This document shows positions 120 to 16,619 of a DNA stretch of 16,854 nt, in pieces. The notes beneath the pieces were generated by a model, which was not told the DNA's origin, did not search any database, and saw nothing but the letters and a program-made list of their open reading frames with translations. The DNA comes from Hormiphora californensis (Eukaryota > Animalia > Ctenophora). The stretch is from assembly GCA_020137815.1 (NCBI GenBank), contig WFME01000028.1, positions 1 to 16,854 of the forward strand, read 5' to 3'. Position numbers and translations under genes: made by a program. Numbering within the stretch: position 1 is the first letter of the stretch; the number at the start of each line of letters is the position of its first letter.

Positions 120-909
120 CTTCGACCATTTTCTGTTTTACGGGCCAAGGAACTCAAGAATTGTTTAAAGTTATAAAACCCAAATGATGATAACTGATAA
201 ACCAAAAATAGTCCTATGAGCTTGAGACCTTACCCTCTTTTCATTATAAAGCCCTTTTGCTGGTTTTTAAACATTATTTATAATGTATGTTATCAATGAT
301 TTATTAAGTGATATAATTCTTTTTGAAACAAAAATTAAGAAAAGTCTTCACATACGAAATATCAGATAAAAGGCAAAATTTGGCTGTACGGATTAATTAA
401 CACTTTTTTAATAGTGATCGTATGGTTTCTACCCACTTTACTAAATTGTGCCAGAAAAACTTTTTCTTTACCTTTCAGCAAAAGTTATTCTAGCATTATT
501 GCCTAAACAGTAAACCGTGATCACTATTTACAACACGGTGGGGAAAGCATAACGTTTTCCCCTAGTTGACAGTCTTTCATATACACGTTTTTTTGTGCGT
601 AACCCGTAATAAAATCGCTTTCTCAAATTTAATGTGGTGAATTGCCCCCAGCTCAACCAAAACTGGCCTCAACGTCGAGCTCGTAAAAATTTATTGTCCC
701 CCCAAAACCGATTTAAAATATGCTTATAAAACCCGTTTCATGGTTTAGCCGGGGAACAAATTGCAGTGTAAACCCGCCCCTCGGTTTCTTTCGATTTTTG
801 AATAAGAGGGATTTTAAAATTACTGTATGTTTGGCGAATAAAAATTTAATGCAAGGTAAATTTTATGAAACAAATTTTATGAACTTGGAATGCGTTTTTC
901 TACCCTCAA
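120..909 (-). pseudogene. Frameshifted 3' part of the env-like gene (likely sequencing errors, possibly decay)
   Basis: Minus-strand fragments FKIPLIQKSKETE (~780-820), FTLQFVPRLNHETGFISI (~720-775), VYMKDCQLGENVML (~545-587) and hydrophobic LIGLFL / IFGLSVIIIWVL (~172-225) followed by ARKQK. Breaks fall in homopolymer-rich sequence. Confidence 0.5.
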
Positions 910-2431
910 TCAATTTTTATACAGAAGATCCATATTACGAGAGTAGCTGGTGTTAGTGAAAACCGACTCATCTTGGTTTTCCAAATTCCATAGCTGCAGC
1001 TCGTTAACCATGTCTCTTGTTAACCGCCCGTTACCGTCAATAGAGCTCATCGCCCGATACGCCTTACAGTACCACTGTACGTACCTTTCCTAAAAAAATC
1101 CGTTTTAATTTTATTACAATTAAATGTCTCATGGATACCTCATGAAATCAACTAATATAAGGGAATCAATATACTTCGACGTGTCTGGTTAAAGTTTACC
1201 AGTTGCAGGAGGTACACTTCCGCTGCTGACCGGCAGTCGTTACTTTCTACAATCGCAGGGAGCTCGCTATTCAAAATGGTGAAAGACAGGACTGATTTCT
1301 CACTGTTCCGTCTTAACCCGTTGACTTCTTTTTGAATAATATCCGTCAGTCCAGTAGACCTTTTGTTTCCTGGGACATTATAACAGCTTATTAACTTATT
1401 CAGTATTACAGCGTACCTAACTAACTCTCTCTCTCTCTCTCTCTCTCTCTCTCTCTCTCTCTCTCTCTCTCTCTACCTCTCTCTCTCTCTCTCTCTCTCT
1501 CTACCTCTCTCTCTCTCTCTCTCTCTCTCTCTCTCTCTCTCTCTCTCTCTCTCTCTCTCTCTCTCTCTCTCTCTCTCTCTCTCTCTCTCTCTCTCCCTTT
1601 CTTTCATTCTCTCTTTCTCTCTTTATCCTCTTTCTCTCTCGAGATGTATCTATCTCTCTCTTTCTCTCTCTTTCTCTCTCTTCTCACTTTTGCTATTTGG
1701 TTTTGGTATATCGTCTTCACACATCTGCATTAATACTCCAATGTTCAACGCTTTCAGTAGATCGTCATAAAATAGTACACAACTGAAAGGGACACAGTTG
1801 ATAAGTTACGATTAAGATATATCATATAATTTAAATTATCGGCTCAAATTTGTAGTGGTAGTAAGCCTACTATAGTACATAATTGATAATTCTACAGCCG
1901 GTCCACGTTTTACCGGGAATCGGGATGGTCGAGGAAGGGTTTACCCAGTAAATCGGGGTGTCTGCAGGTATATTATATTGGGGCCAAATACTGTAAGTTT
2001 CATACATCGTGGGAAATGTATCCTCCCGGTAAATCGCGGGTCGGTAAATAAGGACCCGACTGTGTATATAATGTAGTTTATTATAAAGGTAAGTAAGTAC
2101 TGACCTGTCCTTTCGATTCCCTGCTCTGTTTACACGGACAATTTTGGGTTCCTTGATTATTGGTCTTTTTAGTTTGGTGTCCAACACTATTGATACAATA
2201 TCTTGCACAACTGTGGATATAAGTCGTTAGGTAATACGGTATTCTTCACCTCCTTCATTCATCTAATAAGGTATTCTTCAAGTCCTTCTATCATAACAGT
2301 AAATTCCACTCATACTTACTCTCGATATGACCCGTGGATTCGATAAGAGTCCCTGCCTTTTCATTAATATGAATTTTTCTTGATCCATTCACAACAATCA
2401 GTAAACACACAACACCCACCAGCGATAACAT
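910..2431 (-). CDS. Multi-exon envelope/F-like glycoprotein gene; exons 2431-2320, 2210-2105, 1782-1688, 1369-1200, 1089-910; probably continues, frameshifted, to about position 100
   Basis: Four GT-AG introns with matching phases (donors GTAAGT, GTCAGT, GTGAGA, GTAAAC; acceptors CCACAG with branch CCTAAC, TTTCAG, CCCAG, TTTTTAG). Joined 220 aa: MLSLVGVVCLLIVVNG-SRKIHINEKAGTLIESTGHIEIVQDIVSIVLDTKL...KDSCVLFYDDLLKALNIGVLMQMCEDDIPKPNSKRNKR-STGLTDIIQKEVNGLRRNSEKSVLSFTILNSELPAIVESNDCRSAAEVYLLQLERYVQWYCKAYRAMSSIDGNGRLTRDMVNELQLWNLENQDESVFTNTSYSRNMDLLYK. The F/Env family call is by motif resemblance only. Confidence 0.72.
1425..1686. repeat. (CT)n microsatellite inside predicted intron 3 (1370-1687) of the env-like gene
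   Basis: Near-pure (CT)n 1425-1594, then degenerate CT-rich sequence up to the GTGAGA donor. Confidence 0.97.
2232..2294. repeat. 31-bp imperfect tandem duplication within env-like intron 1
   Basis: TAATACGGTATTCTTCACCTCCTTCATTCAT versus TAATAAGGTATTCTTCAAGTCCTTCTATCAT. Confidence 0.8.
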
Positions 2432-2482
2432 ACCTACTATAATAATCAATTAAAGTAAGATCATTGCTTTAGTTATATTATA

Positions 2483-2488
2483 CTTATA
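2483..2488 (-). promoter_or_regulatory. TATA-like element for the env-like gene
   Basis: TATAAG (then TATAATATAA) on the minus strand about 50 nt upstream of the ATG at 2431. Confidence 0.4.
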
Positions 2489-2549
2489 ATTGGTAACTTG
2501 GGTGGTATAGTTTTGTTAGAGTAATCTGCATTAGATTATTTGTGAGTGG

Positions 2550-14292: not shown

Positions 14293-14422
14293 TGTGACCG
14301 TGAATTGTTTGATGAAACGATCAAAGTATAAAGGAGAAAGAAAGGTGTACAGAAAGAAAGTTGTACAGAACTACTACTGAATTGTGAGGCCAAGCATCAC
14401 AAGCATAGGATGTCCACGTCAC

Positions 14423-14522
14423 CTTGCAGCACTTTACAATATAAGCCTATCTGTTGATATTGTAGCAAGTGAGAGCCATAACAACAAATTGAGCCTACAC
14501 TTGCAGTACTTGGCACCTCCAT
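14423..14522 (-). CDS. Probable first coding exon of RepHel (MEVPSTASVGSICCYGSHLLQYQQIGLYCKVLQ)
   Basis: Acceptor TTATTCCAG (G at 14525), ATG at 14522, donor AAG|GTGACG (14422). The phase-1 join to the pyrimidine-tract/CAG acceptor at 14292 is in frame with the large ORF. An upstream 5'UTR intron 14525-14607 has donor CG|GTGAGT. Confidence 0.6.
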
Positions 14523-14687
14523 TTCTGGAATAAACTGCTTGAGAAGTTGGCAAGTGCTATTTTATTGGTTTTTATAATAGTTAAATGCTATAGTTAAATC
14601 TACTCACCGATTATATGCTTATAACTTGGTATATCAGTAGATCGAGGTGAATGTTGAAAGTCTTAAAGGGTATGACTCCTACCGTAT

Positions 14688-15680
14688 GAGATACGACGTT
14701 TTGTCTGGGCAATTACCCCCATAAATCTACTTTTCTTGACGGAATATGTCCATGAAAACTTTCTAGGACCAGCTGAAGTGGAAATATTCAGAATATGTAT
14801 AAAATTATGAATAGGTACATATTGACTATTCTGCATCGAAATATGTCTATGTAAACGTTATAGGACCAACCAAAGTGGAAAAATTCAGAATATGCATTAA
14901 ATCATGAATCGGCGCATAAATATGCAAATAACGGCTTAACAATGCGAGATACGACTTTTTGTCCGGGGGACGACCCCCCATAAATCGACTATTCTGCGTC
15001 GAAATATGTCCATGAAATTGTTCTAGGACCAGCTGAAGTGGAAATATTCAGAATATGCATTAAATCGTAAATCGGTGCATAAATATGCAAATAACGGCGA
15101 AACGGTACGAGATACGACTTTTTGTCCGGGGGACAACCCCCCATAAATCGACTATTCTGCGTCGAAATATGTCCATGAAATTGTTCTAGGACCAGCTGAA
15201 GTGGAAATATTCAGAATATGCATTAAATCGTAAATCGGTGCATAAATATGCAAATAACGGCGAAACGGTACGAGATACGACTTTTTGTCCGGGGGACAAC
15301 CCCCCATAAATCGACTATTCTGCGTCGAAATATGTCCATGAAAACATTCTAGGACCAGCTGAAGTGGAAATATTCAGAATATGCATTAAATCGTAAATCG
15401 GTGCATAAATATGCAAATAACGGCGAAACGGTACGAGATACGACTTTTTGTCCGGGGGACAACCCCCCATAAATCGACTATTCTGCTGAAATTTTTTCCA
15501 TGAAAACACCCAGGACCACTGAATGGAAATATTCAAAATATGCTTAAAATGTAAATCGGTGCATAAATTGCAAAAACGGCAAAAGGGTGCAAGATCCTTT
15601 TTTTGCCCGGGGGGGAACCCCCCTTAAAAAAATCGACTATTCTCGTCAAAATGTCCTTTAAAATTCCTTAAAAACCCCAA
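14688..15680. repeat. 163-bp tandem array, about 6 copies, diverged at both edges
   Basis: GAGATACGACTTTTTGTCCGGGGG recurs at 14946, 15109, 15272 and 15435 (163-bp spacing); partial copies at 14688 and 14824; degraded copy at ~15592; inverted partial copy at 15770-15810. Confidence 0.95.
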
Positions 15681-16619
15681 ATCCGAGATAATCAAAAAAT
15701 TATACAAAAATTATGCAAAAATTATGTTTCATTGCCAAAAAAAAATTTTATATAGCCTACGACATGAAAAGTCGATTTATGGGGGGTCTTTCCCCCGGGG
15801 AAAAAAAAGCTCTAAACCCAGCCTTTTTTGCTCTTTTTGGTTTGTAAAAGGGGGTGCGTATATGTATTATTATTATGTTAAAACAAGCTTTTGGGCCCCC
15901 CCCCGTACTTTTAAAGGGAACCTCGATCCCTAAAATTTTAAAACACCAAATAATATCATTGAGGTGCTTTACAAAAAAAATTTCAGCTTTTCGTAGTTTG
16001 TCGGGAACTGGTTAAACCCCTTTTGAAAGGGCAAAAGTCGCATCCTAGGTATCTGCCTGCCCCCAAATCGGCAAAATTAAAAATTTTCTGCGCCTGAGTT
16101 TACCTTTCAGATTTGTCTTATAAGTTCTAGGATGACCTTTAAAAAGGGGAGGATGGTTTTTTTTCAATGCGGGGGCTGTGCCCCAACCCCCCCCCAGGGG
16201 GCCACGGGCCTTCCTGCATGATCATAAATCCCACTTTTTTCTTGGTTCTACCCAAATTCTCATGCCCCCGGGCGAAACGCTCGACTACACTTTTTACTAC
16301 TTTATAAATCTTAAATTTAAAAAAAACTGAGCTGGGGCCATTTAAATATTAATCTGAGTCATTCATTTTTTCTTTCTGAGAGTTTTCTTCCTCTCTACCG
16401 TCTGAAAATCCCCGCTCTCGACAAACTTCTTTCTTTTTTTTTTTCTGCCCCCCGCAAGTTCCCCTCTCCCCGCACAATTGAATTTTGCGCTCCTCTACGC
16501 TTGTGTTACCGTTAAAATTAAAAATGACTGACAACAAGAGAAGGGGGAAACGTGTACATGTTCCTCCCGGGGTTTTTATTGGATTTTTTTTGCGAGTGGC
16601 TGTATAAAAACTGTTTGAC

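Follow-up and report, generated by a model that had tools for sequence, protein, structure and literature searches.

An HLE2 Helitron protein from a ctenophore with predicted self-processing sites and an adjoining pair of membrane-protein genes

Introduction

Can a rolling-circle transposon of a comb jelly carry an envelope? The question is raised by a 16,854-nucleotide stretch of the Hormiphora californensis genome (contig WFME01000028.1; hereafter the window), in which an initial annotation, made from the DNA letters alone, had perceived a virus-like Helentron: a RepHel polyprotein with a protease and late-domain motifs, lying next to a divergent cassette of an F/Env-like gene and a second, small membrane-protein gene. 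Here we consider what RepHel encodes, what the cassette encodes and whether the two belong to one element.

Results

The reading of an intact Helentron-type RepHel was borne out. On the minus strand, which carries all RepHel features described below, one frame (4126..14277) runs uninterrupted from the ATG at 14277 to a CT-microsatellite intron at 4125, giving approximately 3,384 codons up to the first recognisable intron donor; the C-terminal end is provisional, with possible extra exons at 3550-3886. Helitron_like_N, PIF1, DUF6570 and Peptidase_C48 all scored over their Pfam cut-offs, and the FLTLS, HFH, YxxKY and Walker motifs are intact, as are the His, Asp and Cys residues of the C48 protease. 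The HUH/Y2 Rep domain (7903..8826) is joined in a single chain to a Pif1-type helicase (5668..6978), the family profile matches Helraiser (7lcc), and the named proteins nearest to RepHel are those of ctenophores. Upstream of Rep lies a profile match to DUF6570 (12010..12423; 61.7 bits as compared to a cut-off of 24.3), which the accessible part of PMC11417382 gives as a marker of HLE2. On sequence criteria RepHel is an HLE2 (Helentron-type) Helitron protein.

A basic repeat head, made up of 17-aa (51-bp) repeats (13783..14277), and a clan CE protease, represented by an Ulp1/C48 core with its His, Asp and Cys (4417..4827), were both found within RepHel as had been annotated. Comparable basic repeats occur in many relatives, including those from oyster, and Peptidase_C48 is listed among 20 stably captured domains in the text available from PMC11417382; as both are common in HLE2, they were rejected as virus-specific signs. 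Two further regions, both helical, are domain A (12490..13707), containing conserved Cys/His residues, and domain B (10045..10980), which contains several conserved CxxC pairs and was folded from the relative P0001. The two models are of moderate confidence (pLDDT 65 and 67 for A and B, respectively), and a PDB fold search retrieved generic helical bundles at best (Z of 6.9 and 7.6), while a BFVD search with domain B produced no clear match. As in the initial annotation, no capsid gene was recognised, though a capsid or matrix role may have escaped these searches. A search of viral contigs for RepHel relatives found none, and prokaryote genomes returned Pif1-like helicases only.

Clan CE proteases, such as those of adenovirus, ASFV and the Ulp1/SENP family, cut after x-Gly-Gly. 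Domain B was seen only in a 21-member clade of related sequences, which forms one side of a branch with an SH-aLRT of 100; in 15 other relatives neither domain B nor C48 was matched. Within this clade a Gly-Gly precedes the first domain B CxxC by 10-95 aa in 20/20 sequences (4.3 expected), and another follows the last by 3-60 aa in 18/19 (2.8 expected), with the sequences being related by descent, with these windows having been set after inspection and with P0019 (site 1) and both P0019 and P0002 (site 2) left out for want of the domain or its end. Two control windows gave 2/21 (4.5 expected) and 10/21 (10.6 expected), and a 60-aa window gave 10/20. The linkers around the sites are less than 10% identical across the clade, and P4 is Leu or Ile in 19/38 cases. 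In the window the predicted sites are VLRGG (Gly-Gly at 11044..11049) and LTCGG (9964..9969). The conservation of x-Gly-Gly on both sides of domain B, in linkers that are otherwise unconserved, suggests self-processing by C48, and RepHel is thus likely to be cut into three proteins by its own protease. The polyprotein idea is thereby strengthened by a feature that is new to this analysis.

With regard to late domains, the initial annotation is upheld as far as the presence of the motifs is concerned: RepHel contains two PTAP and seven LYPSI motifs. The first PTAP (residue 509; 12742..12753) falls within conserved domain A, where relatives carry other letters, and is likely incidental. The second (PTAP(P), residue 776; 11941..11952) is positioned in a low-confidence linker and, together with LYPxI, is retained in P0001 (67% identical), the only other member with PTAP at that position. 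The seven LYPSI motifs represent a single motif multiplied by a 78-bp tandem repeat (11108..11659; 96% identical), of which each 26-aa unit combines LYPSI with a SIM-like V[VA]DLT core, and the linker PTAP and LYPxI are present in 2/21 clade members and absent from 19/21. Eight V[VA]DLT cores, resembling SUMO-binding motifs, are interleaved with the late-type motifs in the window; P0001, P0012 and P0013 have SIM-like cores as well, although their repeats are unrelated. The PTAP/LYPxI motifs therefore admit non-budding readings, as part of a SIM array or as a late domain of the L1 type (the latter from what is accessible of PMC5478143).

The cassette contains a glycoprotein gene on the minus strand (913..2431), for which the predicted exons 2431-2320, 2210-2105, 1782-1688, 1369-1200 and 1089-913 are joined via four GT-AG introns into 220 codons free of stops, with a signal-like start and an RNKR furin-type site at residues 105-108, across a predicted splice junction. 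Among the listed variants those in exon 2 are synonymous in 5/5 cases (P about 0.0007) and those in exons 2-3 in 6/9; with its open spliced exons and synonymous-biased variants the gene is real. Three variants at 2155-2173 were found in run X1, which is derived from one sample, indicating that the cassette is not a simple two-allele gene; at least three variants of the glycoprotein gene coexist in that sample. The spliced signal-peptide and furin-site glycoprotein that had been annotated consequently stands for its first five exons, start and RNKR, and not for its presumed 3' half (120..912, minus strand), which is error-laden, is rich in homopolymer runs and has 17-22 stops in each frame, albeit with pieces that contain Cys and, near 156-212, a stretch of hydrophobic residues. 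Intron 2 harbours a MITE-like insert (1893..2066, limits by eye) with very high depth at 1980-2037.

Homology searches with the cassette were unproductive. None of 55 candidates for the exon 4 region reached E<=1, exon 5 gave five matches among 1.84 billion representatives (all repeat-protein noise), Pfam searches of 10 and 7 cassette pieces and a comparison with PDB sequences gave nothing usable, and the ESM Atlas returned generic type I membrane proteins (best 0.85), likewise of no use. The small gene agrees with its annotation as a type I membrane protein in a divergent cassette: a single plus-strand exon (2860..3282) specifies 140 aa with a signal-like start, two N-glycan sequons and one hydrophobic span. 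None of 20 candidate homologs was accepted, and viral contigs provided none. Its listed variants are mostly amino-acid changing and 11/18 fall on codon position 1; an alternative coding frame was rejected, as the other frames contain stops by eye. The spacer between the divergent starts (2432..2859), which has a 36-bp inverted repeat (2550-2637) and a 92-bp direct repeat, is likely a bidirectional promoter.

The F/Env-like identity of the larger glycoprotein was not confirmed. Landmarks resembling those of F proteins can be followed by eye in order (signal, Cys, RxKR, a Cys 42 residues on, a Cys-rich part and a hydrophobic stretch towards the end). In one of four segment tests, comparison of the post-furin part with paramyxovirus F1 gave a z of about 2, and 8/300 and 23/1,000 shuffles reached the score. 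Whole-protein scores against the fetched profiles, which covered baculovirus and paramyxovirus F, were no better than those of shuffles, nor did a frameshift-tolerant profile-to-DNA alignment of the broken 3' part beat them. With the paramyxovirus profile, genuine baculovirus F proteins reach just 2-13 bits, so that a distant F could escape detection. In the present gene model the 20-mer after RNKR has a hydropathy of -0.84 and is no hydrophobic fusion peptide, whereas all 72/72 reference F proteins are at or above -0.05 (minima of -0.05 in 28 baculovirus and 1.29 in 44 paramyxovirus F proteins). The introns, and the absence from the window of any other long frame or LTR-like repeat, argue against the cassette being the env of a separate LTR element; an errantivirus (LTR, gag, pol and intronless env) was rejected, as none of these is present and there are four introns.

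These results bear on the proposal that a comb-jelly Helitron lineage turned into a capsid-less enveloped virus, with an intron-bearing F-derived spike as fusogen, a second membrane protein and circles spreading between cells, a proposal that we consider unlikely. The N-terminal product would then be a Gag/matrix-like nucleoprotein, from the C-terminal part of which PTAP and LYPxI would recruit ESCRT. It would be in keeping with the predicted maturation-type processing, with late motifs that fall within the final 300 residues of what is predicted to be the first product and that P0001 retains despite a different repeat unit, and with the F-like landmarks, segment score and limited profile power described above. 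It is at odds with the failed whole-protein tests, the polar peptide after the furin site, the 19 clade members devoid of late motifs, the ability of a late domain to aid transposition without budding (as reported in the accessible text of PMC5478143) and the unproven linkage of cassette and RepHel.

That linkage, namely that both lie inside the same boundaries, was not confirmed, since no termini were found: a search for HLE2 ends (short terminal inverted repeats, a 3' stem-loop and a TT target) was negative in the window, of which the error-laden ends may stop short of them. Among the contigs listed, none extends over the whole compared stretch. The window ends have no overlap or fold-back and hence give no sign of a circle. 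Upstream of RepHel there is a 163-bp tandem array (14824..15628), part of which recurs in inverted orientation at 15766-15805.

The adjacency could in principle be an assembly chimera or a repeat collapsed across the CA and CT microsatellites (3411-3492 and 3914-4122), as both window ends are error-laden and the two microsatellites exceed the k-mer length, such that short-read contigs cannot bridge them. This is very improbable, given that the inner sequence is clean, that four runs of one sample contain 85-86% of the words of 1700-9000, and that window-exact contigs on the cassette have an even depth (38.6 and 38.7). The cassette is no artefact. In organism B, one contig corresponds to the spacer together with the start of the small gene, and a joint of equal depth leads from it into the first exon of the glycoprotein gene. 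No RNA run was among those listed as sharing window words; for two other runs, the share of words explainable by the cassette alone was 0.081 in X9 (0.08 observed) and 0.013 in X5 (0.15 observed), these being small shares to which no weight is given.

A further possibility, a substantial if doubtful one, is that the Helitron ends before the cassette and that the membrane genes form a separate multi-copy unit, either a domesticated env-derived host family or the cargo of another element, with RepHel inserted beside one copy. A candidate boundary exists in the edge of a high-depth repeat separating RepHel from the cassette (3372..3405; depth 1,067 in X1, 1,771 in X9 and 0 in X5, the X5 coverage gaps over the cassette carrying no weight), and the relative L001 (45% identical) has 876 bases past its stop without cassette-like sequence. 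The combination of introns with a polar peptide after the cleavage site is also reminiscent of domesticated env genes, Drosophila Iris among them, and errantiviruses with F-type env in ctenophores represent possible donors (the available portion of PMC13524379, supplement file 2). Against this, the genes are just about 500 bases apart, neither a terminal repeat of the HLE2 type nor a strong hairpin was found in 3283-3913, a second X1 variant extends from the small gene to about 3368, and the late-domain-like motifs are confined to the sub-lineage that carries this RepHel.

Discussion

The explanation that we favour, tentatively and as somewhat short of probable, is that of an HLE2 Helitron of which RepHel cuts itself at Gly-Gly sites into three, with the adjoining membrane-gene pair as captured cargo and not a working envelope. 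The first product would be a basic, probably DNA-binding N-terminal protein ending in the SIM/PTAP/LYPxI linker, the second a zinc-binding helical protein and the third a Rep-helicase-protease that drives rolling-circle transposition. Chromatin marked with SUMO would be the place to which the SIM-like array guides the protein, and there the C48 protease would also strip SUMO and so ease silencing. As its introns are kept, the cassette would be copied with the element at the DNA level, with the shared spacer driving its expression. The larger glycoprotein may descend from an F-type env, and the lack of a hydrophobic peptide after RNKR makes a surface ligand or decoy more likely than a fusogen.

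What is new here are the x-Gly-Gly motifs that flank a Cys-rich domain in an HLE2 clade. Helitron-borne Ulp1 proteases have so far been interpreted as modulators of host proteins; with the conserved sites, the idea that a transposase processes itself can be tested directly, and the protease would gain a role within the element. Literature searches covering listings and the openings of abstracts turned up no description of an enveloped or self-cleaving Helitron. Should the cassette lie inside the element, no earlier case of a Helitron with membrane-glycoprotein cargo would be known from these searches, and it would have a bearing on host crossing. An enveloped element, if true, would be an animal counterpart of pleolipoviruses, and horizontal transfer of Helitrons would have a built-in route.

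HLE2 elements (Helentron/Helitron2 in the HELIANO classes, PMC11417382) likewise possess a RepHel with DUF6570, Rep and Pif1, and C48 is a known capture. In the accessible text of that paper C48 is assigned to protein turnover and mostly occupies a frame of its own, whereas here it is part of the RepHel chain; processing sites are absent from its description of HLE2, and 'envelope' and 'viral' are not mentioned.

In clan CE viruses, as here, an Ulp1-fold protease and x-Gly-Gly sites are found in one genome. ASFV pS273R acting on pp220 and pp62, the adenovirus protease and poxvirus I7 serve in maturation. In contrast to these viruses, protease and sites reside here in one transposase chain, the products of which have no identified structural fold.

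The pleolipovirus virion has two membrane proteins and no capsid. These viruses combine HUH rolling-circle replication with a membrane vesicle that bears a fusion protein (PMC10919331, as far as accessible), thus providing the model for an enveloped element; they are archaeal and have an unrelated class of fusogen, so the likeness is one of analogy only.

The F-type env of Ty3/gypsy errantiviruses, which have been found in ctenophores (PMC13524379, in part), shares with the glycoprotein a signal peptide, a furin-type site and a mobile multi-copy context, and perhaps a C-terminal anchor. The glycoprotein differs in having introns, in a window lacking LTR, gag and pol, and in showing no significant similarity to the fetched F proteins; the fusion peptide, highly conserved in F-type env by the same partial account, is absent from it. 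Finally, human L1 ORF1p contains a YPXnL-type motif in a transposon protein, comparable to LYPxI here, and this late domain aids retrotransposition without an envelope (PMC5478143, accessible part), so that late-type motifs need not mean budding.

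RepHel is a Helentron/Helitron2 (HLE2) frame with intact core motifs

The long Helitron frame of the window (RepHel) lies on the minus strand as a single frame that begins with an ATG at 14277 and stays open as far as an intron donor at 4125. DUF6570, Helitron_like_N, PIF1 and Peptidase_C48 (C48, an Ulp1-type clan CE protease) all exceed their Pfam cut-offs, and the motifs of Rep, helicase and protease are intact, bearing out the initial annotation of an intact Helentron-type RepHel with an internal clan CE protease. PMC11417382 gives DUF6570 as an HLE2 marker and counts C48 among 20 domains that Helitron-like elements are known to have captured; the window element is a real HLE2 element. 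With RepHel residues 1780-3330 as query, 35 of 1,830 scored candidate proteins were retained at E<=1e-20, the closest relative being P0001, a Pleurobrachia bachei gene model (67% overall identity), while P0002 derives from Mnemiopsis leidyi; these relatives point to a ctenophore host. In a quick tree the window and P0001-P0020 occupy one side of a branch with an SH-aLRT of 100. The C48 core was matched in 11 of these 21 clade members, the remainder stopping short of its position; the genomic locus L001, 94-97% identical to one member ending before C48, shows the core in a later frame, past intron-like gaps.

The RepHel frame runs at least 126 residues beyond the catalytic Cys motif, as compared to only 46-56 in most relatives. 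Another TGG motif lies at 3550-4350, together with segments that resemble exons and have a repeated PQFK; RepHel may gain a C-terminal extension by splicing here, or the segments may belong to a third small gene. At 14824-15805, tandem 163-bp units are accompanied by an incomplete copy in inverted orientation; the array recalls the internal tandem repeats that occur in Helentron-derived elements. The window ends are error-laden: homopolymer runs number 8.9 and 17.2 per kb there but 0-2.5 per kb in the interior, and identity drops to ~70% in the final satellite unit.

Predicted self-processing of RepHel

A Cys-rich domain (domain B) was matched in 19/21 clade members and 0/15 other relatives. 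Clan CE proteases cleave after x-Gly-Gly, and domain B is flanked by two candidate sites of this kind: a Gly-Gly lies 10-95 residues ahead of its first CxxC in 20/20 rows (site 1; 4.3 expected) and 3-60 residues past its last CxxC in 18/19 (site 2; 2.8 expected), P0019 being left out of both counts, and P0002 also of the second, as domain B or its end is absent. Control windows gave 2/21 (4.5 expected) and 10/21 (10.6 expected), while a third gave 15/21 but overlaps site 2 in most rows. The window limits were chosen after a first look, in which a 60-residue window had given 10/20, and the tail probabilities are too strong owing to this post hoc choice and to the relatedness of the rows by descent. 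The surrounding linkers share <10% identity across the clade despite retention of Gly-Gly. From this sequence pattern we infer that RepHel probably processes itself into three products; the signature is well conserved and, judging from search listings, apparently undescribed in the literature.

Predicted models of the helical N-terminal region (domain A) with DUF6570 (window 11908-13710; pLDDT 65) and of domain B (pLDDT 67) are helical. The former had one strong match in a viral structure library, the unnamed Q6R2R9 (559 aa; E 1.2e-13, TM-score 0.29), with the neighbouring accession Q6R2R8 matching weakly, and these model-based matches possibly reflect an HLE2 fragment within a virus genome.

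The membrane-gene cassette

The cassette is a divergent pair, the first gene of which (913..2431, minus strand) comprises five exons separated by GT-AG introns of 109, 322, 318 and 110 bases. Once joined, the exons form 220 codons uninterrupted by a stop; the product starts with a hydrophobic segment and has RNKR at residues 105-108, so that the proposed spliced signal-peptide/furin-site glycoprotein holds for this stretch, but beyond 912 all frames are broken. Among the variants listed, 5/5 in exon 2 (P about 0.0007) and 6/9 in exons 2-3 (P about 0.005) are synonymous, an excess which supports the reading frame. Intron 2 carries a MITE-like insert (1893-2066) with short inverted ends and very high depth in both organisms sampled.

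By eye, F-type landmarks occur in F order, and the best F alignments are in register with the cleavage site. The glycoprotein was compared with profiles built from F proteins of baculovirus type (28) and paramyxovirus type (44), and pairwise with 2 of pneumovirus type; it did not beat shuffles except in one of four segment tests (8 of 300 and 23 of 1,000 shuffles) and one of six settings (3 of 150 shuffles). Power is low, as even the five top-scoring genuine baculovirus F proteins reach only 2-13 bits with the paramyxovirus profile. The 20-residue stretch that follows RNKR is polar, with a hydropathy of -0.84 compared to a minimum of -0.05 among 72 F proteins, which counts against a working fusogen. 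The suggested F/Env-like identity is possible, and an enveloped rolling-circle element seems unlikely. F-type env errantiviruses are present in ctenophores according to supplement file 2 of PMC13524379, the ctenophore rows of its supplement file 3 being gB-type only; such F-type elements are a plausible donor of the glycoprotein.

In the second gene (2860..3282, plus strand; a 140-residue type I membrane protein), insertions among the variants listed are in-frame or absent, and single-base gaps lie upstream of the ATG. Variants at 3136-3261 fall mostly at codon position 1 with conservative amino-acid changes, and none of those listed from X1 and X9, two sequencing runs with cassette-matching contigs, lies at 2879-3162; diversifying selection or recombination between copies is possible. 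X1 contigs exactly matching the window have a depth of about 38.6, and another sample of the same organism gave cassette depths of 194-534, depth on these contigs not being equal to copy number. Three X1 variants overlap at 2155-2173, more than a single diploid locus can hold, provided that only one animal was sampled. In the second organism a contig matches the spacer and small gene start, with an equal-depth joint into glycoprotein exon 1. The two membrane genes of the cassette are real, and the pair looks mobile.

Linkage of the cassette and RepHel

A high-depth repeat begins near 3372, between RepHel and the cassette, and could mark the element end, in the zone named beforehand as refuting a shared element. 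The cassette would then be a separate neighbour, which we regard as possible and only somewhat less likely than cargo. A second X1 variant nevertheless starts in the small gene and reaches about 3368. A search of both flanks found neither terminal repeats nor a strong hairpin beside the cassette. L001, only 45% identical and devoid of late motifs, has no cassette-like sequence in 876 bases downstream. Two hairpins at L001 9569-9792, 630-850 bases past the RepHel stop and the second ~25 bases from the contig end, are a candidate 3' terminus of this cassette-less relative. We tentatively favour a cassette that is cargo of the HLE2 element and would itself lack a fusion function; a chimeric origin of the adjacency seems highly improbable.

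Late-domain motifs and repeats

The late-domain motifs of the initial annotation are present. PTAP at residue 509 lies inside domain A, where relatives carry other letters; in the linker, PTAP at 776 and LYPxI are shared by only 2/21 clade members, the window and P0001. P0001 retains LYP seven times in repeats otherwise differing from those of the window, which hints at selection. Basic repeat heads, likewise present and proposed as virus-like, are common to many relatives within and outside the clade. Every window repeat unit carries V[VA]DLT (eight in total), which we take to be a SUMO-interacting-like core by the SIM consensus; such cores also fill unrelated repeats of P0012 and P0013, both lacking late motifs. 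In P0013 a 16-aa unit bearing a core of this type is repeated 32 times (residues 261-780), in the same linker as the window's 26-aa repeat. Beside an Ulp1-type protease, a SIM reading of these repeats would be at least as economical as a late-domain one. The human L1 late domain serves retrotransposition without an envelope (PMC5478143), showing that motifs of this kind do not by themselves imply budding.
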